A stretch of DNA of 64,000 bases, from NCBI GenBank assembly GCA_964291625.2, contig OZ220089.1, positions 4,256,001 to 4,320,000 on the forward strand, read 5' to 3'. Both the position numbers and the translations under genes were made by a program. Every line of letters begins with the position of its first letter. The first letter of the stretch is position 1. Positions 4,035 through 40,153 of this stretch are shown in pieces. The DNA is from Candidatus Latescibacterota bacterium. GTDB taxonomy: Bacteria; Latescibacterota; UBA2968; UBA8231. A model generated the notes under the pieces. It did no database searches and was not told the origin of the DNA. It saw only the letters and a list, made by a program, of their open reading frames with translations.

Positions 4035-7000
4035 GTGACCGAAGCCCCGTCACGCGCCCTGCTGCTCGAGCGGCTCCGCCGGCTCCGCCGCCGGCGGCTG
4101 CTCCTCGAGGCCGCCGCGGCTCTGGCGGCGGGCCTGTTCACCGCCGTCGCCGCCGGCGTCCTCGCCGTCGGCCTGGAGGCCCTCCTCTACCTGTCCTCCC
4201 CCTGGAGATGGGGCCTGATCCTGGTCGCCGCCGCGGCCGCCGCGGCCGCCGCGGCGCGCATCCTGTGGCCATGGCGCGGGGGCCTCTCGCTGAGAGCCGC
4301 GGCCCTGACCATCGAGGACCGCGCCCCGGAGCTGTCGCAGCGGCTGATGACGGCCCTGGAGGCGGGCGGTGGCCCGAGAGCGCGGCTCTACTCCTCCGAC
4401 CTGCTCGCCGCGTCGGCCTCGGAGGCGGCCGCCGTCCTCGATCGCCATGGAGCGGCCCGGCTGGTGCCGGCGTCGAGGCTGCGCCGCACCGCCCTGAGGG
4501 GCGCCGCCATCGCCGGTCCGCTCCTCCTCCTCCTCGGTCTCTCGGGAACCGCCGGCGGCGAGGCCCTGCACCGCTGCCTGAACCCGGGGACGGCCTTCGA
4601 GCGCCCGCAGCGCACCCGGCTCCATGTCGAGCCCGGCCACCAGCGGGCGATCCGGGGAGAGGACGTGGCCCTCTCCATCCGGATCGAGGGCGACCTGCCG
4701 CCGGCGCTGCGGGTCCGCCGCCGCGATGTGCGCGACGGCGACTGGGTGGAGGAGGAGGTGATCCTGGAAGCCGGCGCCGACTCCCTGCGCCATCTCTTCG
4801 AGGAGGTGCGCTCCACCTTCGACTTCGAGGTCGCCGCCGGCGACGGCGAGGCCGGCCCCTACCGCGTCACCGTCATCGATCCGCCCGAGGTCACCCGCTT
4901 GAGTCTGCGCTACGACTATCCGGAATACAGCGGGCTCCCGGCGCGGGTCGAGGACCAGGGCGGCGACGTGCGCGCCCTCGCCGGGACCGTCGTCGAGTGG
5001 GGGATCCACGCCAGCAAGCCCCTCTCCGCCGCGGCCCTGGTGATCGACGACACCCTGCGCCTGCCGGCCCGGGTGGTCGACGACGGCGCCGTCGTGAGCT
5101 GGACCCTGCCGGCCCCGGAGGACAGCGCCAGGGCCCGCCGCCAGTACTTCGTGGCCCTCACCGACCGCGGCGGGGTCGGCAACCGGGCTCCCATCCGCCA
5201 TGCCCTCCGGGTGCTGCGAGACCAGCCGCCGGAGGTCGTCATCTCCGAGCCCGGTCCCGAGGCCGACCTGCCCGAGAGCCAGCAGGTGCGGGTGCGGGTC
5301 GAGGCCGCCGACGACTTCGGGGTGAGCCGCGTCGACCTCGTCTTCCGCGTCGGCCAGGGTCCCGAGAGGCGCCTGCCCATCCCCGTGGAGGCCGGTCCCC
5401 GGGTGGTGCTCTCCCACCCGTGGGACCTGGCGCCCCTGGAGCTGCTGCCGGAGGACCGGGTGCGCTACCGCGCCGAGGCCTTCGACAACGACGCCGTGGG
5501 CGGGCCCAAGCGGGCGGTGAGCCCCGAGCACGTGCTGCGCTTCCCCTCCCTCTGGGAGTTGTTCGACGAGGTCTCGAGGCAGCAGGAGGAGCGCCTGGAG
5601 TCGCTGGAGGAGGTGGCGGCCGAGGAGGCGGGGGCCCGGGAGTACGTGGAGCGGCTGCGGCGGGAGGTGCTGCGCACCGAGGAGCTCACCTGGGACCAGA
5701 AGCAGGAGCTGGAGAGCGCCCTGGCCGCCGAGGAGGAGCGCGCCCGCGCCGTGGAGGAGGTCGCCCGGCAGATGGCCGGCAGCCTGGAGAAGCTGGAGCA
5801 GGGCGGCGCCGACTCGCGGGACCTGCTCGACAAGCTCGACGAGATCCGCGAGCTGATGGCCGCCGTCGCCTCGCCGGAGCTGCTGGAGGCCCTGCGGGCC
5901 GTGCAGCAGGCGGCCGAGCAGCCCGACGCCGAAGAGCTCGCCGAGGCTCTGAAGCAGTTCGCCCAGGACCAGGAAGCGTTCCAGCAGCGCCTCGACCGGA
6001 CCCTGGACCTGCTCCGGCAGGTGCACGCCGAGCAGCGCCTGCTGGCCGTCGTCGAGCAGGCGGAAGACCTGGAGGAACGCCAGGGGAGGATCAACGAGGC
6101 CCTCGAGCAGAGCTCCGCGGAGGCCGCCCTCGGGGACCAGGCCCTGCAGGACCAGGAGGGGAGGCTGGCCGGCGACACCGACCGCCTGCGCCGGGAGATC
6201 GGCCGGTTGGGGGAGGAACTGAGGGACCTGAGCGCGGCGACCGCGGAGTCCCTGAGCTCCGAGGCCGAAGACATGGAGCACCAGGCCCTGTCGGAGCGCA
6301 TGCGCCGCATGGAGCGACTCCTGGCCTCGGGCCAGCGGCCCCAGGCGGGGAGGATCGGCGCCGGCCTGCAGCAGGATCTGGAGGAGCTGTCCGCGTCCAT
6401 GGGCCAGCTCCGCGAGGAGTTCTTCGGCGGCCAGCGGCAGGAGCTGGCCCGCCTCCTGCGCCGGGCCATGGCCGACCTGGTGGACCTCTCCCGCCGCCAG
6501 GAGGAGCTGGCGCGGGACACCTCGCGCCAGCCGGGGGGTTCCGACGCCGCCCTGGCCGCCGGGCAGCAGGCCCTGGCCCAGGGCGCCGAGCTGGTCACCG
6601 AGGACGTCGCCCGCGCCGGCTCGAGGACGCTGGCCCTGGAGCCTTCCCTGGCCGCTACCCTCGGCGGCGCCCTGCGCCGCATGGAGGAGGCCGCCGGGCG
6701 GCTGGGGCAGCTGGAGAGGGGGCGGGCCGGTCAGCTCCAGACCGAGGCCATGGGTTACCTGAACCAGGCCGCGCAGCAGCTGCGGCGGAGCCTGGACAAC
6801 CTGAGCCAGGCGCGCACGCCCTCCTCCTTCGGCGAGGCCATGGAGCAGCTGATGGCCCTCTCCGAGCAGCAGGCCGCCCTCAACGAGGAGACCCGCCAGG
6901 CGATGCAGCAGGGATCCCGGAACCCTCGCGGGACCGGGGGCCGGATGCCGGCCATGCCGAGACTCGCCGCCGAGCAGCGGCGCCTCCAGCGGGCCCTGGC

Positions 7001-31997: not shown

Positions 31998-33188
31998 TCA
32001 GCGGCGCCAGCCCTCGCCGGGCATGATGCGGCGCATGAACTGGTCGAAGAGGGGGACCGTGAAGGCGGTGTCGCCGTGGCCGGGGCTCCAGATCATGCCC
32101 TTCGAGATCAGTTGGGCCCTCGCCGGCCCGAGGGAGGTGACCTTGAGACCCAAGGCCCGCGCGATGTCCCCCGAGCGATGCGGGCCGGGCCCCAGCTCCG
32201 ACATGGCCCTCAGGTACCTCTTTTCCGAGGTGGTCAGGCGGTCGAACCGCACCCGGAAGAAGCCCTCGTCCAGAGCGGCGACGACTACGTTCGAGGCGCG
32301 CTCGACGTCGGCGATCCCGATCGACGGGCCCGCCGCCACATCCCAGGAGTGCTTCCCCCACTCCTGAAGGAAGTACGGGTACCCGTGAGTCTCCTGAACG
32401 ATGCGCTCCAGGGCGTCATCGTCGATGGTCACGCCTTCATCCTCGGCCGGCTTGACGATGGCCGTTCGGGCCGCCTCGGCTCCGAGCGGTCCGACCCGTG
32501 GAAAGTCGAACAACCTCTCGGCGTATGACTTCGCCCTTCCGGTGCGGGCCCGGAGCTGCGGCAGGCCGGCTCCGACCATGACGACGGGCAACCGCCGCTG
32601 GGCGGTCAGGTGCAGGGAGATGATCAGCGCCGCCAGCTCCTCCTCGTCGACGTACTGGAGCTCGTCGACGAACAGGGACAGCGCCGTCTCCGCCTCCCTG
32701 GCCGCAAGACCGGCGGCCTCCAGCAACGCCTGCAGATCCATCTCGAGGTCGCCATTGTCGGCCAGGCCCGGCTCCGGCTCGAGATCGAGCCCCACCTCGA
32801 TGTCCTGGTACTTCACCTTGAGAGCGGCGGCGAAGCCCGCCAGGCCCCTGAGCGCCCTGAGAGCGAGACCCTTCGCCTTCTCGTTGTTGGACAACTGGAG
32901 CAGCGCCTGCCTCAACTGGGGAGCCAGCAGGGCGGGGAGAGAGCGATTATCCGGCGCCTCGACGGACAAGGTGCGGATACCGGCTGCCTGCGCGTCCACG
33001 CGCATGCTCTCGAGCAGCACGGTCTTGCCGACCCCCCTCAGGCCGACCATGAGAAGGCTCTTGGCCGGCCGGCCGAGTCTGATCCTGGCCAGCGCCACAC
33101 GGACGCTCTGGCGCAGGTCGTCCCGGCCTGCCAGCTGGGGCGGAGGCGTGCCGGCCCCGGGAGCGTAGGGGTTCCTGATCGGATCCAT
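31998..33188 (-). CDS. AAA-type ATP-binding protein with C-terminal winged helix
   Basis: NPYAPGAG.PP..LAGR, GLRGVGKT, VDELQ, GYPYFLQ, R.QLI.KG. Confidence 0.88.
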   Translation of the reverse strand: MDPIRNPYAPGAGTPPPQLAGRDDLRQSVRVALARIRLGRPAKSLLMVGLRGVGKTVLLESMRVDAQAAGIRTLSVEAPDNRSLPALLAPQLRQALLQLSNNEKAKGLALRALRGLAGFAAALKVKYQDIEVGLDLEPEPGLADNGDLEMDLQALLEAAGLAAREAETALSLFVDELQYVDEEELAALIISLHLTAQRRLPVVMVGAGLPQLRARTGRAKSYAERLFDFPRVGPLGAEAARTAIVKPAEDEGVTIDDDALERIVQETHGYPYFLQEWGKHSWDVAAGPSIGIADVERASNVVVAALDEGFFRVRFDRLTTSEKRYLRAMSELGPGPHRSGDIARALGLKVTSLGPARAQLISKGMIWSPGHGDTAFTVPLFDQFMRRIMPGEGWRR

Positions 33189-33196
33189 GGCCGCCG

Positions 33197-33235
33197 ATTA
33201 TGGGGAGTTTAGGCGATTATGTCAATATTATGTCA
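33197..33235 (-). promoter_or_regulatory. Near-consensus promoter of the ATPase gene with direct repeats
   Basis: Minus strand TTGACA(33225-33220)-N17-CATAAT(33202-33197). ATTATGTCA repeated at 33216 and 33227. Confidence 0.65.
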
Positions 33236-33384
33236 TAACCAAAATTTTGCTAACTTCCCCCAAACTACCGGCCACAGGGAGGTGCGCCGCGTCCCTGGAG
33301 TCCCCGGAGACCCGCCCCCGCAGGAACCGCCCCTGGTTGCGGAACGTCGGCTGGCCGGGCATATTGGCCGTGAACGGAGCCGAG

Positions 33385-33762
33385 ATGAGAATCCCCCGAG
33401 CCATCGCGCTGGCAGTGCTCGTCGCGGCGCTGCCGGCCAGCAGCGTCGCCGCCGCGGCGGACTGCTCGCCGTGCGCGCTGGCGGTGGCGGCCCCCGGCTG
33501 CCACGCGCCCGCGGCGGCTGACTCCGAGCAGCTCCGGTCCGCCTGCTGCTGCGCCGCCCTGAGCTGCGCCGACGATTCCCGACCTTCCGCCGATCCCGCT
33601 CCAACCTGGCTGCCCTCCGGCCCCGGGACCTCCGCCACCCCTCCCGCGGGCCCGCCGGTCCAGGCCCTCCGCGCCGCGGACCACGAGCCTGTCGCACCAG
33701 GGCCCCCGCCCCGGGCCGCCAAGGTCCCCCTCTACGCGCTCCACGGCATCTACCTGATCTGA
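33385..33762 (+). CDS. Secreted Cys-rich upstream ORF, putative metal-sensing leader (CruR/CutF-like)
   Basis: 125 aa: signal peptide, CSPC, GCH, CCC..C, Pro-rich tail GPPP, C-terminal PLYALHGIYLI*. Confidence 0.7.
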   Translation: MRIPRAIALAVLVAALPASSVAAAADCSPCALAVAAPGCHAPAAADSEQLRSACCCAALSCADDSRPSADPAPTWLPSGPGTSATPPAGPPVQALRAADHEPVAPGPPPRAAKVPLYALHGIYLI

Positions 33763-33903
33763 TCCTTCTCCGCTCTCGCCGCGCCCGCGGGCACGGCGCA
33801 GAGCCGCATCGAGCGATGCGCTGGCCGGGCCGGCCCCTCAGGGCCAGGCCGCGTGGCCGCGCATGTTGCGTACCGGTCCGACGCCGGAAACAGGAGAAGG
33901 AGA

Positions 33904-35163
33904 ATGCACCGGAGAGCTATCTGCGCCGCGGTCGTGGCCCTGGCCGCCGCGGCGCCCGCGGAACCCCCTGAGCTGGACCTCGACCTCCTGATCGAGGAGG
34001 CCCTCACCTCGAACCTGTCGCTGCAGGTGCTGAAGCACGGCTCTGCCGCCGCCCGGTCGGCGGTCCCGGCGGCCGGGGCCCTGCCCGACCCGGGGCTGAA
34101 GGTCGAGCTGAGCAACGTCCCCTTCCGCCCCCTCGACATCGACGGCTCGCCCATGAGCGGCCGCCAGCTCATGCTCTCCCAGAAGCTGCCCTACCCGGGG
34201 AAGCGGGCGGCCCGGGAGCGCGCCGCCTCCCACGCGGCGGCCGCCGCCGAGGCCGCCCGCCAGGAGCGCGAGGCGACCGTCGTCAACCTGGTGAAGCAGG
34301 CCTGGTTCGACCTGGATCTCCTCGACCGCTCGATCGCCATCACCGGGAGGAACCGGGACCTGCTGCGGGACTTCGTGCGCATCGCCCGGACGAAGTACTC
34401 CGTGGGGCGGGTGCCGCAGCAGGATGTGCTCAAGGCCCAGGTGTCCCTGTCGAGCCTGCGCCGGCGCCTGCTGCACATGGAGGGGGAGCGGCGGCGGACG
34501 GCGGCGCGGCTCAACACCCTGCTGGACCGGGATCCCCGCGAGCCGGTGGGCCGCATCCCGGCCCGGGAGCAGACGCCCCTGGAGTTCGAGGCGGTCCGGC
34601 TGCTGGAGCTGGCCCTGGACGGGCGGCCCCTGCTCGAGGGCCTGCGCCTGGGCCGGGAGCGCTGGCGCGCCGCCGAGGAGCTGGCCGTCCTCGACCGGCG
34701 GCCCGACTTCCAGGTGAACGCCGGCTGGCGCCAGCGCGGCTTCGAGGACGATCCCGTCTCGGGCAGCGACTTCTTCTCCGTGGGGGTGATGATGACCCTG
34801 CCCGTCTACAAGGGGCGCAAGCAGGATTCCCGGATCGCCGAGGCGAGGGCGCGGGTCCGGGAGGCCGAGGCCCGCATCGAGGCCGAGATCCGCGAGCTGG
34901 CGCTGCGGATCGAGGAGCTCCACGTCGACGCCGAGACCCACCTGCGGGAGATGGCCCTCTTCCGGGACGTCATCATCCCCCAGGCCGACCAGTCCCTGGC
35001 CGCGGCGGTCGCCGGCTACCAGGTGGACGAGGTCGACTTCCTCACCCTCCTCGACAACCAGATGACCCTGCTGGAGTTCGAGATCGACTACCATCGCCAC
35101 CTGTCGCAGTACGAGAAGAGCCTGGCCCACCTCGAGTCCGTCGTCGGCCGGCGGCTCTTCTGA
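33904..35163 (+). CDS. TolC-family outer-membrane factor (CusC-like)
   Basis: Signal peptide, AGALPDP, SQKLPYPGK, Y..G.V.QQDVLKAQ, Y....VDFLTLLD. Confidence 0.92.
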   Translation: MHRRAICAAVVALAAAAPAEPPELDLDLLIEEALTSNLSLQVLKHGSAAARSAVPAAGALPDPGLKVELSNVPFRPLDIDGSPMSGRQLMLSQKLPYPGKRAARERAASHAAAAAEAARQEREATVVNLVKQAWFDLDLLDRSIAITGRNRDLLRDFVRIARTKYSVGRVPQQDVLKAQVSLSSLRRRLLHMEGERRRTAARLNTLLDRDPREPVGRIPAREQTPLEFEAVRLLELALDGRPLLEGLRLGRERWRAAEELAVLDRRPDFQVNAGWRQRGFEDDPVSGSDFFSVGVMMTLPVYKGRKQDSRIAEARARVREAEARIEAEIRELALRIEELHVDAETHLREMALFRDVIIPQADQSLAAAVAGYQVDEVDFLTLLDNQMTLLEFEIDYHRHLSQYEKSLAHLESVVGRRLF

Positions 35164-35179: not shown

Positions 35180-36550
35180 ATGTGGAAATACGCGATCGCC
35201 GTGATCCTGTCCCTGGCCGCCGGCACCGCCTTCGGCCTCTGGCTGGGCGGCGCCGGCGCGGGGGCGGGAGCGATGCACGCCCACCAGGAAGAGGCCGACG
35301 TCCACCGCTGCCCCATGCACCCCACCGTCGTCTCCGAGGGGCCGGGAAGCTGCCCGGTCTGCGGCATGGACCTGGTGGCCGACGAGCCGGCGCCGAGCAG
35401 CGCCTCCGGCGGGGAGCGCGCCGTCGCCTACTGGCGGGCGCCGATGGACCCGTCGTACACCTCCCACGAGCCGGGCCAATCGCCCATGGGCATGGACCTG
35501 GTGCCGGTCTACGAGGACGAGCTGCAGGCCGAGGGCACGGTGACGATCGACCCGGCGACGGTGCAGAACATCGGCGTCAGGACGGCGCCGGTGGAGCGCC
35601 GGCCCCTGCACCGCACGGTGCGCACCGTGGGCCGCGTCGACTACGACGAGACGCGCATGACCGACGTCAACACCAAGATCGCCGGCTGGGTGGAGCAGCT
35701 CTTCGTCGACTACACGGGTCAGATGGTGGAGAAGGGGGAGCCCCTGCTGCAGATCTTCAGCCCGGAGCTGGTGGCCGCCCAGGAGGAGTACCTCACCGCC
35801 GTCGACTACAGCGAGCGCCTGATGGCCGGCGGCGGGGGCGAGGTCGTGACCGGGGCCCGGGACCTGCTGTCGGCGGCGCTGCAGCGGCTGCGCTACTGGG
35901 ACATCAGCGACCGCCAGATCGAGGAGCTGCGGCAGACGGGGGAGGCGCGGCGCACCATGACCGTGCACTCGCCCCAGCAGGGCACGGTGGTCCACAAGGC
36001 GGTCCTCGACGGCCAGCACATCGGCCCGGGGCAGCACCTCTACCGCATCGCCGAGCTGTCGCGGGTGTGGGTCTACGCCGACGTCTACGAGTACGAGCTG
36101 CCGTGGGTGCGGGAAGGGCAGGAGGCCGAGGTCGAGCTCTCCTACCTGCCGGGCCGGACCTTCACCGGCAAGGTCACCTACGTCTATCCCTTCCTCGAGC
36201 CGGAGACGCGGACCGTCAAGGTGCGCATGAGCTTCGCCAACCCCGAGCTGGAGCTGAAGCCGGAGATGTACGCCAACGTCACCATCCGCTCGCCCCTGCC
36301 GGCCGACAGCGTCCTCACGGTCCCGGTGCAGGCGGTGATCCACTCCGGTCCGCGCCGACTGGCCGTGATCAGCCTCGGCGAGGGCCGCTTCCAGCCCCGG
36401 GAGATCCGCGTCGGCGCCGAGGCGGAGGGCTTCTACGAGGTCCTGGAGGGCCTGCGTGAAGGGGAGCGGATCGTCACCTCGGCCCAGTTCCTCATCGACT
36501 CGGAGAGCAACCTGAAGGCGGCGGTCAGCTCCCTGGGGGAGGGGACGTGA
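35180..36550 (+). CDS. cusB: Heavy-metal RND periplasmic adaptor
   Basis: CPMHP...CPVCGMDL, APMDP...SPMGMDLVP, SPELVAAQEEYL, LKPEMY, FLIDSES. Confidence 0.92.
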   Translation: MWKYAIAVILSLAAGTAFGLWLGGAGAGAGAMHAHQEEADVHRCPMHPTVVSEGPGSCPVCGMDLVADEPAPSSASGGERAVAYWRAPMDPSYTSHEPGQSPMGMDLVPVYEDELQAEGTVTIDPATVQNIGVRTAPVERRPLHRTVRTVGRVDYDETRMTDVNTKIAGWVEQLFVDYTGQMVEKGEPLLQIFSPELVAAQEEYLTAVDYSERLMAGGGGEVVTGARDLLSAALQRLRYWDISDRQIEELRQTGEARRTMTVHSPQQGTVVHKAVLDGQHIGPGQHLYRIAELSRVWVYADVYEYELPWVREGQEAEVELSYLPGRTFTGKVTYVYPFLEPETRTVKVRMSFANPELELKPEMYANVTIRSPLPADSVLTVPVQAVIHSGPRRLAVISLGEGRFQPREIRVGAEAEGFYEVLEGLREGERIVTSAQFLIDSESNLKAAVSSLGEGT

Positions 36551-39500
36551 TGATCGGGCGCATCATCGAGGCCTGCGTCAACAACAAGCTGCTCACGGTG
36601 CTGGTGACCCTGCTGGCCGCCGGCGCCGGCTTCCTCGCCATGTCCGACACCCCCCTCGACGCCATCCCCGACCTGTCGGACGTGCAGGTGATCGTCCTTA
36701 CCGAGTACCCGGGGCAGGCGCCCCAGGTGGTGGAGGACCAGGTGACCTTCCCCCTGAGCACGGCGATGCTGGCCGTGCCCTACGCCAAGGCGGTGCGGGG
36801 GTACTCCTTCTTCGGCCTCTCCTTCGTCTACGTCATCTTCGAGGACGGCACCGACATGTACTGGGCGAGGAGCCGCGTCCTCGAGTACCTCAGCTTCGCC
36901 GGCGACCGCCTCCCCGAGGGGGTGCAGCCGCGGCTCGGTCCCGACGCCACCGGCGTCGGCTGGGTCTACGAGTACGCCCTCGTCGACACCAGCGGCCGCC
37001 GCGACCTCGCCGAGCTGCGCTCGATCCAGGACTGGTACCTGCGCTACGAGCTGACCAGCGTGCCCGGCGTCGCCGAGGTGGCCAGCATCGGCGGCTTCGT
37101 CAAGCAGTACCAGGTGACGGTCGACCCCAACAAGCTGCTGGCCTACGGGGTCTCGCTGCAGCAGGTGAAACGCGCCATCCAGCGCAGCAACAACGACGTC
37201 GGCGGCCGCCTCATCGAGCTGGCCGAGACCGAGTTCATGGTGCGCGGCCTCGGCTACATCCGTTCCGTCGAGGACATCCGCGAGGTGCCCGTGAGCGCCG
37301 GCCGCTCCGGCACCCCGGTGCGGGTGCGGGACATCGCCACCGTGCAGGTGGGGCCCGAGCTGCGCCGCGGCCTGGCGGAGTGGAACGGCGAGGGGGAGGT
37401 GGCCGGCGGCATCGTGGTCATGCGCTACGGCGAGAACGCCCTGGCCGTGATCGACGCCGTCAAGGCGAGGCTCGCCGAGCTGCAGGACGGCCTGCCGGAA
37501 GGGGTGGTGGTGGAGACCGCCTACGACCGCTCCGGCCTCATCCGCCGCGCCGTGGGCCACCTGCGCGAGAAGCTGGTGGAGGAGTGCCTGGTGGTGGCCG
37601 CCGTCTGCGGGCTCTTCCTGCTCCACTTCCGCAGCGCCTTCGCCGCCGTCTTCACCCTGCCCCTGGGCATCCTCGTCGCCTTCATCGTCATGTGGGGCCA
37701 GGGGATCAACGCCAACATCATGTCCCTCGGGGGGATCGCCATCGCCGTGGGGGCCATGGTCGACGCCGGTATCGTGCAGATCGAGAACGCCCACCGCCAC
37801 CTGGCGCGGGACCGGGGCCGCAAGGACCACTGGGCGATCATCGCCGCCGCCTCCAAGGAGGTGGGGCCGGCCCTGTTCTTCTCCCTCCTCATCGTCACCC
37901 TCTCCTTCCTGCCCGTCTTCACCCTGGAGGCCCAGGAAGGGCGGCTCTTCAAGCCCCTGGCCTACACCAAGACCTACGCCATGGCCGCCGCGGCCCTGCT
38001 GTCGATCACGGTGGTGCCCGTGCTCATCGGCTTCTGCCTGAAGGGGCGGGTCGTCGACGCCGACCGCAATCCGCTCAACCGGGTTCTGACGCGGGGCTAC
38101 GGGCCGGTCCTGGACTGGCTGCTGCGCCACAAGGCCGCCACCCTGGCCGCCGCCGCGGCGGTGATGTTCGTGTCGGTGTTTCCCTTCCGCAGCGTGGTGG
38201 TGGAGCGCTTCGCCGAGCGGCCCGGCAGCCTGGCGCACACGGCGCTGTCCCGCCTGCAGGGGCTCTTTCCCCTGGAGCAGATCGGCTCGGAGTTCATGCC
38301 GCCCCTGTACGAGGGGGACCTGCTCTACATGCCGACCACCCTGCCCGGGGTCTCGGTGACCAAGGCGCGGGAGCTGCTGCAGCAGACCGACCGCATCATC
38401 CGCACCTTCCCGGAGGTGGAGAACGTCTTCGGCAAGATCGGCCGCGCCGAGACCGCCACCGACCCGGCGCCCCTGTCGATGATCGAGACCACCATCACCC
38501 TGAAGCCGCAGGACCAGTGGCGGCCGGGCATGACCCCGCAGAAACTGGTGGAGGAGCTGGACCGGGCGGTGCGCTTCCCGGGGCTGACCAACGCCTGGAC
38601 GATGCCGATCAAGACGCGCATCGACATGCTCTCCACCGGCATCAAGACCCCCGTGGGCATCAAGGTAGCCGGCGACGATCTCGAGACGCTGGAGGAGGTG
38701 GGCCGGCGGATCGAGCAGGTGGTGCGGGAGATCCCGGGCACGGCCAGCGTCTACGCCGAGCGGGTCGCCGGCGGCAACTACGTCGACTTCGAGATCGACC
38801 GCGAGGAGGCCGGGCGCTACGGCCTGACGGTGGGGGACGTGCAGGAGGTGATCCTGTCGGCCATGGGCGGCATGAACATCACCCACACCGTGGAGGGCCG
38901 CGAGCGCTACCCGGTGAACCTGCGCTACGGGCGGGAGCTGCGCGACAACCTGCCCGCCCTGAGGCGGGTCCTGGTGGCCACGTCCACGGGGGCCCAGATC
39001 CCCATCGGGCAGGTCGCCGACCTGCGCATCCGCAAGGGGCCGCCCGGCATCAAGAGCGAGAACGCCCGCCTCAACGCCTGGGTCTACGTCGACATCCGCG
39101 ACGTCGACGTGGGCACCTACGTCGAGCGCGCCCGCCAGATCGTGGCCGAACGGATCGACCTGCCCCAGGGATACAGCCTGATCTGGAGCGGCCAGTACGA
39201 GTACATGGAGAGGGCCAAGGAGCGGCTGAGCCTCGTCGTGCCGGTCACCCTGGCCATCATCTTCCTGCTCCTCTTCCTCCACTTCCGCAGCGTCGTGGAG
39301 AGCCTCATCGTCATGCTCACCCTGCCCTTCGCCCTGGTGGGCGGGATCTGGCTCATCTACATCCTGGACTACAACATGAGCGTCGCCGTGGGCGTGGGTT
39401 TCATCGCCCTCGCCGGGGTCAGCGCCGAGCTCGGGGTGGTGATGCTCACCTACCTCGACCAGGCCCTGGAGGCCCGCCGCACCGAAGGCCGGCTCGAGGA

Positions 39501-39798
39501 CCGGGCCGATCTCGCCGCCGCCATCGTCGAGGGGGCGTCCCGGCGCGTGCGCCCGATCTTCATGACCGTGGGTTCGACGGTGGGCGGTCTGCTGCCGATC
39601 ATGTGGGCCACGGGCGCCGGGTCGCAGGTGATGAAGCGGATCGCCGCGCCCATGGTGGGCGGGCTGGCGACGGCTACACTTCTGGCGCTGCTGGTGTTGC
39701 CGGCCGTATATGCGCTGTGGCGTGGTTTCCAGATGCGCGGCGGCACGGAACCGACAACGGATGCACACACCCCCGAGGAAGGAGTGACAGCAGCATGA
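36547..39798 (+). CDS. cusA: CusA Cu(I)/Ag(I) RND permease
   Basis: DAIPDLSDVQV, LGPDATGVGWVY, EFMPPL.EGDLLYMP, DPAPLSMIET, PIKTRIDML, MKRIAAPMVGG. Confidence 0.97.
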   Translation: MMIGRIIEACVNNKLLTVLVTLLAAGAGFLAMSDTPLDAIPDLSDVQVIVLTEYPGQAPQVVEDQVTFPLSTAMLAVPYAKAVRGYSFFGLSFVYVIFEDGTDMYWARSRVLEYLSFAGDRLPEGVQPRLGPDATGVGWVYEYALVDTSGRRDLAELRSIQDWYLRYELTSVPGVAEVASIGGFVKQYQVTVDPNKLLAYGVSLQQVKRAIQRSNNDVGGRLIELAETEFMVRGLGYIRSVEDIREVPVSAGRSGTPVRVRDIATVQVGPELRRGLAEWNGEGEVAGGIVVMRYGENALAVIDAVKARLAELQDGLPEGVVVETAYDRSGLIRRAVGHLREKLVEECLVVAAVCGLFLLHFRSAFAAVFTLPLGILVAFIVMWGQGINANIMSLGGIAIAVGAMVDAGIVQIENAHRHLARDRGRKDHWAIIAAASKEVGPALFFSLLIVTLSFLPVFTLEAQEGRLFKPLAYTKTYAMAAAALLSITVVPVLIGFCLKGRVVDADRNPLNRVLTRGYGPVLDWLLRHKAATLAAAAAVMFVSVFPFRSVVVERFAERPGSLAHTALSRLQGLFPLEQIGSEFMPPLYEGDLLYMPTTLPGVSVTKARELLQQTDRIIRTFPEVENVFGKIGRAETATDPAPLSMIETTITLKPQDQWRPGMTPQKLVEELDRAVRFPGLTNAWTMPIKTRIDMLSTGIKTPVGIKVAGDDLETLEEVGRRIEQVVREIPGTASVYAERVAGGNYVDFEIDREEAGRYGLTVGDVQEVILSAMGGMNITHTVEGRERYPVNLRYGRELRDNLPALRRVLVATSTGAQIPIGQVADLRIRKGPPGIKSENARLNAWVYVDIRDVDVGTYVERARQIVAERIDLPQGYSLIWSGQYEYMERAKERLSLVVPVTLAIIFLLLFLHFRSVVESLIVMLTLPFALVGGIWLIYILDYNMSVAVGVGFIALAGVSAELGVVMLTYLDQALEARRTEGRLEDRADLAAAIVEGASRRVRPIFMTVGSTVGGLLPIMWATGAGSQVMKRIAAPMVGGLATATLLALLVLPAVYALWRGFQMRGGTEPTTDAHTPEEGVTAA

Positions 39799-40136
39799 AA
39801 CGCCTGAAGACCCGAGGGAAAGCCGTCATCGCCGTTGCGGCGGTCGCTGCGGTCCTGGCCGTCGGCGGCTATTTCCTGCAGGGAGAGAGCCAGCCGCCTC
39901 CCCTGCCCGCGGACGGACTCGCCCTCTACCAGACCTTGCTGAGGGAGATCCCGGAGGTTGTGAGCCAGGTGCCGTGCGCCTGCTGCAACCAGAGTCTCTC
40001 CTGGTGCTACGAGGGAGGGTGTCCCCCCACCTGACGGCAGTGCAACGAAGAGGGCCGTGACGCCTTCAAGTGGCACCACGAGGGAAAGGACATCGAGGAG
40101 ATCAAGGAGCTGATCCTGGCGAAGTACTTCCATTGA
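39795..40136 (+). CDS. Probable selenoprotein (UGA at codon 80, UxxC), PCYCGC-like membrane-anchored protein, 113 aa
   Basis: ATGA overlap with cusA, TM anchor, PCACC...WCY...CPPT-UGA-RQCNEEGRDAFKWHHEGKDIEEIKELILAKYFH*. Read-through ends 17 nt before copA. Confidence 0.78.
40035..40080 (+). promoter_or_regulatory. SECIS-like hairpin
   Basis: GUGC..GAGGGC-[CGUGAC]-GCCUUC..GCAC directly 3' of the UGA; loop 21 nt from the UGA with G at loop position 2 followed by U. Confidence 0.62.
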
Positions 40137-40153
40137 GGGAGGCCTGACCGCCG

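Follow-up and report, generated by a model that had tools for sequence, protein, structure and literature searches.

A probable selenoprotein of the PCYCGC/CYCXC superfamily between cusA and copA in a copper-efflux operon of a Candidatus Latescibacterota bacterium

The genome of a Candidatus Latescibacterota bacterium (GCA_964291625.2) contains a copper-efflux operon in which a small open reading frame (ORF) lies between cusA, the gene of a heavy-metal pump of the resistance-nodulation-division (RND) type, and copA, the gene of a copper-exporting ATPase. The operon lies within the 64,000-nucleotide stretch analysed here (contig OZ220089.1, positions 4,256,001 to 4,320,000, forward strand), which we will call the window, and all positions are counted from its first letter. 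The small ORF appears to end at an in-frame TGA and remains open beyond it. The questions raised by this locus are whether the TGA is a stop or encodes selenocysteine (Sec), and what a Sec protein would do beside a copper pump. An earlier note on this DNA had proposed a hidden selenoprotein of the UxxC type, and the proposal is now backed by five independent lines: the conservation of the UGA, selection on the codons behind it, a constraint at the level of the RNA, a Sec insertion sequence (SECIS) and the presence of the Sec machinery. We are highly confident that the small ORF encodes a real Sec protein. The best explanation of its place in the operon, which we consider quite likely, is that it serves as a periplasmic accessory of copper export and is a proposed binder of Cu(I)/Ag(I).

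The small ORF starts at ATG 39795-39797, which overlaps the cusA stop TGA 39796-39798 as ATGA, and a putative ribosome-binding site, AAGGAG (39779-39784, +), is located 10 nucleotides 5' of the ATG within the 3' end of cusA. The in-frame TGA is codon 80 (40032-40034, +) and is followed by a Cys at codon 83 (40041-40043), giving UxxC. The frame then remains open for 33 further codons up to TGA 40134-40136 (+), the true stop of the gene. The selenoprotein gene, as supported by the translation, by read-through homologues and by purifying selection after the TGA, thus spans 39795-40136 (+) and has 113 codons and a terminal TGA, with the UGA at codon 80. Immediately 3' of its stop is the ribosome-binding site of copA, GGGAGG (40137-40142), and 17 nucleotides separate the end of the small ORF from the copA ATG (40154). 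Re-reading of the sequence bears out the earlier description of the ATGA coupling, the TGA at 40032-40034, the 33-codon continuation and the 17-nucleotide gap.

The N-terminus of the product is rich in Lys/Arg and is followed by 19 hydrophobic residues (residues 10-28; 39822-39878, +), predicted from the translation to be a signal anchor. The remainder would be a Cys-rich domain of ~75 residues carrying a CxCC motif (Cys61, Cys63 and Cys64; 39975-39986, +), an additional Cys76 and Sec at the first position of an invariant CxxC. The CxCC columns are invariant in A2, an alignment of 34 sequences. The N-terminus of the product, together with lipobox-like N-termini in distant relatives, suggests an extracytoplasmic domain tethered to the inner membrane.

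Homologues of the small gene have been identified in 61 related genomes, in a GTDB set with one genome per species, in a phylum sample of 168 genomes and in metagenome contigs. The 61 relatives give 14 matches, with TGA at codon 80 in nine (own genome included), Cys in four and one spurious weak match. TGA occupies codon 80 at 13/17 of the GTDB genome loci and Cys at 4/17, and the record titles of these loci name Gemmatimonadaceae, 'Ca. Latescibacterota', Planctomycetota and Ignavibacteria. The metagenome loci are divided between TGA (10/18) and Cys (8/18). In the phylum sample, the small gene is matched in 16 of the 168 genomes, 12 of which have the TGA. The U80 column of A2 is Cys in all 23 Cys-containing homologues, and U80 aligns with the first Cys of the invariant CxxC, the position to which the UGA had been assigned in the earlier note. 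That note had also named Cys opposite the UGA in homologues, and a UGA and hairpin kept in relatives, as support for a selenoprotein. Both have been found, the former in A2 and at the Cys-form loci above, and the latter at the TGA loci, with the upper stem of the hairpin paired in 19/19 sequences.

The codons past the UGA also behave as coding sequence. Comparison of 32 of them with nine diverged Sec forms gives nonsynonymous divergence (dN) of 0.2-0.3 where synonymous divergence (dS) is saturated or >0.8, and their ratio, omega, is 0.09-0.32 where computable, similar to the 40 codons upstream of the UGA. Judged by these substitution patterns, purifying selection acts on the codons behind the TGA. 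In the sequencing runs compared with the window, no change at 40032-40034 is found among the differences listed for 4/4 runs; the differences listed are 12/17 for record 9 of run X2 and 3/6 for record 17 of run X3, and the result is firm only for run X1. Records 6 and 7 of X1, which may be the source sample, have 0 other letters.

These data bear on the simplest alternative, that translation really ends at the TGA, which would be due to a nonsense mutation or an assembly error or would separate two small ORFs, and that only a 79-residue product is made. Public collections do hold the 79-residue form (P0002) and many relatives ending at the same site. Sec insertion is usually inefficient, so that a shortened product would probably be made to some extent even if the UGA is decoded as Sec. 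Against a true stop, the TGA recurs at the same codon in 13/17 and 10/18 independent assemblies, purifying selection extends past it, the hairpin described below is conserved, and no change at the codon is found among the differences listed in any of the four runs. Also, inspection of the sequence 3' of the codon-80 TGA reveals neither a start codon nor a ribosome-binding site for a second ORF. As far as sequence comparison can tell, a true stop is already contradicted by the comparative data, and we consider it extremely improbable.

Decoding of the UGA as Sec requires a signal in the mRNA, for which a hairpin directly 3' of the UGA (40040-40076, +) is the candidate SECIS. The ViennaRNA fold consists of a lower stem, GUGC 40040-40043 with GCAC 40073-40076, an upper stem, GAGGGC 40050-40055 with GCCUUC 40062-40067, and an apical loop, CGUGAC 40056-40061, located 21 nucleotides past the UGA, with an energy of -21 to -22.4 kcal/mol. 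These are exactly the pairs and coordinates given for the hairpin in the earlier note. The bacterial SECIS model, as set out in section 5 of PMC13188914, has a loop of 3-9 nucleotides, an upper stem of 4-16 base pairs, a G in the first two loop positions, a spacing of 16-37 nucleotides between UGA and loop, and a minimum free energy of <= -7.5 kcal/mol. The window hairpin agrees with each of these, having a 6-nucleotide loop with G at position 2 followed by U, a 6-base-pair stem, a spacing of 21 nucleotides and an energy of ~-21 kcal/mol.

Several observations temper the weight of the hairpin. In DNA of 70% G+C, the fold alone is not significant (z = -1.46; 20/200 shuffles fold equally well), and for this reason we rely on comparison across sequences. 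Covariation is modest, at 0.200 against a shuffled mean of 0.166, with 4/500 shuffles as high, in a set of related sequences one of which supplied the structure. Since the upper stem also codes for a conserved EGRDAF motif, the protein accounts for some of its conservation.

The comparison nevertheless shows constraint on the nucleotides themselves. In 11 sequences, with near-duplicates excluded, the hairpin span has seven invariant amino-acid columns with degenerate codons, four of which are written with one codon throughout (TGC, GGC, GCC and TTC, each in 11/11 sequences), and an Arg within the span is CGT in 10/11. Outside the span, 0/22 such columns use a single codon, even in lineages with a third-position G+C content (GC3) of ~0.47. 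The Fisher probability of 4/7 against 0/22 is ~0.0015, with the columns treated as independent and the sequences being kin. Among 19 distinct sequences from 24 Sec-form loci, the upper stem is paired in 114/114 cells and the whole hairpin in 93.4% of cells, while sliding the partners by 1-3 columns lowers pairing to 33-48%. The lower helix is paired in 86.8% of cells and includes two pairs with double changes (GC/AU and UA/CG). Two one-sided changes in the upper stem, A-U to G-U and G-C to G-U, retain pairing, and the second is caused by an Ala-to-Val replacement at locus L086. The Cys forms have other residues at the hairpin site and no such hairpin.

The genome also encodes the machinery that Sec insertion requires. 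All four components that had been proposed for checking are present, and all score above their curated cut-offs: selA (517.6 bits), selB (341.6 bits), the tRNA-Sec gene selC (74.2 bits) and selD (324.8 bits). The genes for SelA, SelB and tRNA-Sec are found side by side at C1:3423794-3427224 of the own genome. As a separate observation, the own-genome selD (G000:C1:1116503-1117309, minus strand; locus L014) has an in-frame TGA itself and would thus encode a Sec-containing selenophosphate synthetase. It is accompanied by an 8-base-pair hairpin with a GGUC loop 17 nucleotides past its UGA.

Reading of the UGA as a standard amino acid (Trp, Gly or Cys), through an altered code or near-cognate suppression, has also been considered. 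A database entry, P0003, has W at this position, which suggests a gene caller using another translation table. On the other hand, TGA is the ordinary stop of cusA, copA and the small ORF, which excludes a reassigned code; it also ends 21/31 mechanically picked long ORFs in the window, shadow frames among them. Moreover, the homologues pair codon 80 only with Cys, and a SECIS and the full Sec machinery are present. We consider this possibility very improbable. Taken with the comparative data, the codon-80 TGA very probably encodes Sec. UGA-80 would be decoded by SelB and tRNA-Sec under the direction of the SECIS hairpin 40040-40076, which lies within the coding sequence.

The consequences of the unrecognised Sec codon are seen in the public databases, where the entry for the window product has 79 residues. 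When 1.84 billion representatives were searched with a profile, 112 proteins were returned, the best of which belong to the CxCC subfamily and the weaker of which have 85-170 residues. Among these 112 matches, 24 stop at profile position 83 or 84, their own C-terminus; truncation at Sec was checked in three of the 24 sequences, and the remainder was inferred from the coordinates. Relatives on record end at CPPT, CPPS or CPPL, one residue short of Sec, and one entry shows W. At least 24 clusters (50% identity) of relatives are thus apparently kept as ~80-residue fragments cut at the Sec codon. NF041379, a curated model meant to rescue such fragments, has a cut-off above the reach of this subfamily, and a model for the subfamily would correct many records.

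To which family does the protein belong? Its single NCBIfam match is NF041379, the 'CYCXC family (seleno)protein' (OS_HP4), with E 9.3e-10 over model positions 21-89 of 90. The score of 38.5 bits is below the cut-off of 90, which is reached in 0/168 genomes of the phylum sample. A direct Pfam scan of the read-through protein gives nothing at E <= 0.01; for Pfam PCYCGC (PF13798), with its gathering score of 25, the protein reaches 10.2 bits (E 0.69), and any match to this family is seen in 4/13 subfamily members, with a best E of 0.17. Ten proteins of the profile search have been scanned, including seven weaker matches, and five pass the Pfam PCYCGC cut-off; the PCYCGC-type proteins score 58-73 bits on NF041379. 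The alignment of the subfamily (A1) with PCYCGC-type proteins by hhalign has a probability of 98.4% and E 7.3e-15 over 66 columns. Among the eight templates used, P0060, P0062, P0066 and P0088 pass the Pfam gathering score, and P0084, which was also scanned, is below it (19.7 bits). From these profile alignments, homology to the PCYCGC/CYCXC (OS_HP4) superfamily can be considered secure. The label 'PCYCGC-like' in the earlier note therefore stands by hhalign, but a direct Pfam match exists only at E 0.69.

Within this superfamily, the small gene has traits of its own in A2. CxCC replaces CxCGC, the next Cys follows the motif without an insert, and Cys76 is found where others have Met. The window motif is P-C-A-C-C, so C-x-C-G-C as such is not found, and its third Cys aligns only through a one-column gap. 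By these alignment characters, the small gene is a distinct subfamily of the PCYCGC/CYCXC superfamily. A search of the ESM Atlas with a natural Cys form, P0031, gives CYCXC/PCYCGC look-alikes at 0.81, which is a lead only. The A2 profile gives nothing significant in a sequence search of the PDB, where the best match is a designed fibre (E 0.012). Among the distant PCYCGC-type relatives, P0061, P0065 and P0067 have His-rich C-terminal tails, and lipobox-like N-termini are found in P0033, P0059, P0061, P0065 and the L082 product. The lipoboxes and His-rich tails are consistent with an extracytoplasmic, metal-related superfamily.

The second question, what the protein may do, has been approached through its neighbours. 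The operon begins with the gene of an outer-membrane efflux protein, CusC-like (33853-35163, +; Pfam OEP, E 9.2e-49), whose NCBIfam TolC/NodT matches are all under their cut-offs. The second gene encodes a CusB-like membrane-fusion protein (35180-36550, +), which has the CusB barrel-sandwich domain HlyD_D23 (Pfam, E 3.4e-84), HMBD (E 5e-18) and two N-terminal heavy-metal-binding motifs; its best NCBIfam name is CusB, at 200.6 bits and under the cut-off of 390. It is followed by the heavy-metal RND pump gene of the CusA/CzcA family (36547-39798, +), with 1224 bits on TIGR00914 against a cut-off of 701 and Pfam ACR_tran at E 2.6e-228. The pump has methionines in a stretch that may correspond to the methionine triad with which E. 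coli CusA binds Cu(I). Downstream of the small ORF, the gene of the copper-exporting P1B-type ATPase CopA (40154-42448, +) scores 593.7 bits on TIGR01511 against a cut-off of 397 and contains Pfam E1-E2_ATPase and HMA domains, the latter N-terminal, with a CPC motif at residue 394. The Pfam and NCBIfam assignments bear out the copper-efflux operon and the gene order CusC-like, CusB, CusA, small ORF and CopA that had been read from the sequence.

The association with copper genes recurs in other genomes. With Cus/CopA homologues called by tblastn at E <= 1e-10, Cus and/or CopA homologues adjoin the gene at 13/17 genome loci (10/13 Sec forms and 3/4 Cys forms) and are near it at 7/18 metagenome loci. 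At two Ignavibacteria loci, the gene is located 3' of CusB, CusA and HMA/DUF3347 genes. The Cys form at locus L052 shares an identical ATGA overlap with its cusA. Two loci from another genus, L038 (~5480-5930) and L039 (~5530-5990), have one more gene between cusA and the Sec gene, which overlaps the end of cusA and codes for a secreted protein of ~150 residues. A metagenome contig, L080 (~1800-2040), has a piece homologous to this protein.

Several observations speak against the link to copper. No Cus/CopA gene is found in the DNA covered at 4/17 genome loci (L044, L045, L048 and L054) and at 11/18 metagenome loci, many of which are short or have the gene at a contig end. The neighbours at loci without Cus/CopA include glycoside hydrolases, a cyclase, a PhyH-family dioxygenase and a transposase. 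CusA homologues (E <= 1e-150) occur in 50/61 relatives, ~40 of them at >=71% identity, and the small gene in 13. A genome of the same genus, G007, has a 93% identical CusA and no small gene; both the small gene and copA are missing after its cusA, and unrelated sequence is found there. The presence of most CusA copies without the small gene means that the gene is not needed for the pump and is dispensable. UxxC is characteristic of redox catalysts and not of metal carriers. Finally, a Bacillales PCYCGC lipoprotein described in PMC13068155 adjoins an Fe(3+)-binding protein and not copper genes.

Separately from this distribution, two of the CusA matches, G014:C90:3441-6680 and G053:C1:5308957-5312157, have one in-frame TGA each and cover more of the query's C-terminus than most; these TGAs may be true stops that the search has read through.

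The absence of a CusF gene deserves comment, since the earlier note had mentioned it alongside the proposed role of the small protein as Cu(I) chaperone or redox partner. No match to the CusF models (CusF_Ec, PF11604) is found in the own genome, which is 95% complete, nor in the small protein, so that the description of an operon without cusF holds. However, CusF is found in 0/61 relatives, with or without the small gene, and an absence throughout the clade gives no support for the replacement of CusF. The small protein as a CusF replacement is therefore an unsupported candidate.

The distribution could also mean that the protein, though a real selenoprotein, is found in copper operons by coincidence and has a general envelope function unrelated to copper. 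The loci without a Cus/CopA gene in the DNA covered (4/17 and 11/18) and the CusA-bearing relatives without the small gene fit such a reading, and the wider PCYCGC family has no known function (PMC13068155). However, linkage to Cus/CopA or to HMA/DUF3347 genes recurs across the Gemmatimonadaceae, 'Ca. Latescibacterota' and Ignavibacteria labels in the Sec form as well as the Cys form, and both also show the ATGA overlap with cusA. We consider an incidental position rather unlikely, and the protein is probably tied functionally to copper or metal stress.

What the protein would do with copper can be outlined as follows. Translational coupling to cusA and the place before copA point to a dispensable periplasmic accessory of copper export. 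The selenolate-thiolate pair of U80 and C83, together with the cysteines of CxCC, would bind Cu(I)/Ag(I) released by CopA into the periplasm, and the bound ions could then be buffered or passed on toward CusB/CusA. The periplasmic location, the metal binding and the direction of transfer are what we infer from topology, motif and operon position.

Alternatively, a real selenoprotein with these features could carry no metal and work in the periplasm as a selenol/thiol-disulfide oxidoreductase resembling CcmH or CopG. It would then repair wrong disulfides induced by copper or interconvert Cu(II) and Cu(I) near the pump. We regard this alternative as somewhat unlikely. The UxxC sits at the invariant CxxC of the family, and most UxxC selenoproteins listed in tables of PMC13188914 and PMC9312934 are redox proteins. 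The hhalign comparison of A2 with CcmH (PF03918) sequences of relatives gives a probability of 65% and E 5.9e-5 over 57 columns, and the best but non-significant PDB matches include CcmH (2kw0, E 0.43). Also, section 6.5 of PMC7558416 describes CopG, a CxCC protein linked to copA/cusCBA, as a proposed Cu(I) oxidant. On the other hand, the CcmH link is weak, and no DUF411 (CopG) match is found at E <= 10 in 13 members of the subfamily. The 6-7 conserved Cys within ~25 residues and the His-rich tails of three relatives are more suggestive of a metal site, and no gene for a reductant partner (DsbD/CcdA-like) is seen in the operon.

Between a Cu(I)/Ag(I) binder or relay and a selenol-based oxidoreductase, we place the binder slightly ahead. 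If the tie to copper holds, a metal carrier or buffer rather than a pure oxidoreductase seems to us evenly poised. The fullest form of the metal-binding proposal, put forward only tentatively and as less probable than not, is that this would be the first selenoprotein working in RND-type Cu(I)/Ag(I) efflux, a membrane-tethered relay from CopA to CusB/CusA, belonging to a widespread and mostly Sec-containing subfamily truncated by public annotation. The mostly Sec-containing subfamily is also found in runs labelled sponge and marine metagenome.

Several other features of the window have been noted. Upstream of the cusC-like gene, a 191-residue ORF (33187-33762, +) has no Pfam or NCBIfam family. 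Starting at an internal Met, its product from 33385-33762 (+) has a signal-peptide-like start and many Cys, including a CCC run, and may represent a further metal binder of the periplasm belonging to the operon, or else a shadow frame of the 70% G+C DNA. Downstream of copA, 4 nucleotides after its stop, a 631-residue ORF (42452-44347, +) is without a Pfam or NCBIfam match. It is 93% identical in locus L040, where it is located ~1.4 kb past copA, and its product looks cytoplasmic and without an obvious copper link. On the opposite strand, 44671-46674 (-) encodes a 667-residue protein that consists nearly entirely of ankyrin repeats. A scan of the whole window at Rfam gathering thresholds gives 0 matches, which says nothing either way on the SECIS, and ARAGORN finds no tRNA within the window, the tRNA-Sec being elsewhere in the genome. 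Sequencing runs with part of the window stretch make up 20 rows, mostly labelled sponge metagenome, 18 of which have under half of the sampled words. A contig of the RNA-library run X2 (record 9) covers 39529-40177, from the end of cusA into copA, and is not proof of transcription.

The value of the locus lies in what it makes testable. The coupled position beside CusCBA/CopA in Sec and Cys forms provides a testable hypothesis, periplasmic copper/silver handling, for a superfamily of no known function. Should a selenolate serve as ligand or redox centre in a periplasm that is oxidising and loaded with copper, the case would be instructive on why Sec is used over Cys. Natural Sec and Cys forms at the same operon position within one genus provide a ready comparison.

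In comparison with known systems, the closest family is NF041379/OS_HP4. Like the window protein, its members are small and Cys-rich with one Sec in UxxC, in a family of no known function. The UxxC site is probably the same, since that family has one CxxC only. The recurrent CusCBA/CopA link marks the window subfamily and has not been found for NF041379 in our literature search. The CYCXC/OS_HP4 (PF13798) family is listed as a UxxC selenoprotein family in PMC13188914 and PMC9312934, and both listings cite the 2007 Olavius-symbiont study. OS_HP4 is not in the main text of that study (PMC1976440), where OS_HP1-3 are, and the supplements may hold it. With PF13798, the window protein has a conserved Cys set in common, which is C61, C63, C64, C71, C80 and C83 in window numbering. 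PF13798 members are extracytoplasmic and some are lipoproteins; the motif that gives the family its name is not present as such in the window protein.

Other predicted selenoproteins of metal systems are listed in PMC13188914, including an E1-E2 cation ATPase (UxxC), the SO_0444 Cu/Zn efflux transporter (UxC), a UxxU metal-binding protein and a MerT-like protein, with Sec replacing a metal-ligand Cys in a heavy-metal system. These are transporters or of the HMA fold, whereas the window protein stands by itself as a small, predicted periplasmic protein, belongs to a different fold family and is encoded in an RND operon. The earlier note knew of no selenoprotein described in a Cus/Cop system. 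That statement needs qualification, since the family and Sec-containing metal transporters are already listed in these sources, but it holds for the Cus operon, as our literature search found no paper linking the PCYCGC/CYCXC family, or any selenoprotein, to Cus operons. UxxC selenoproteins in the PCYCGC/CYCXC superfamily and selenoproteins in metal systems are therefore already known, and the new elements are the subfamily, the recurrence of its Cus/CopA link and the fact that public data systematically truncate it. The work is an extension of published work and not a new kind of system.

Among proteins of comparable position or motif, CusF, the Cu(I)/Ag(I) chaperone of the E. coli CusCFBA system, is likewise a small periplasmic protein encoded inside a cus operon, with no sequence relation to the window protein. 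CusF binds metal via Met, His and Trp residues. CcmH (PF03918) is membrane-anchored and periplasmic and, like the window protein, has a Cys motif followed by a helix of the G-K/Q-S/T..EI....Y type. It differs in its Cys pattern, the window protein has no Pfam match to it, and the hhalign probability of 65% is too low for membership. The CcmH homologues of the clade (L067-L078) have CxCG...C...CxC rather than the usual single CxxC, and these patterns account for their weak alignment to the PCYCGC superfamily.

CopG (DUF411, PF04214) likewise has CxCC and is linked to copA/cusCBA. According to section 6.5 of PMC7558416, it is periplasmic, binds a Cu4 cluster and has been proposed to oxidise Cu(I). 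It differs from the window subfamily in having no Sec and a thioredoxin-like fold, and the 13 subfamily members are without a DUF411 match, as noted above; a DUF411 search of the own genome gave no match, and its control also matched nowhere. The resemblance is thus one of possible working and not of family, and by analogy of motif and operon, CopG is the closest functional analogue of the putative selenoprotein encoded between cusA and copA.

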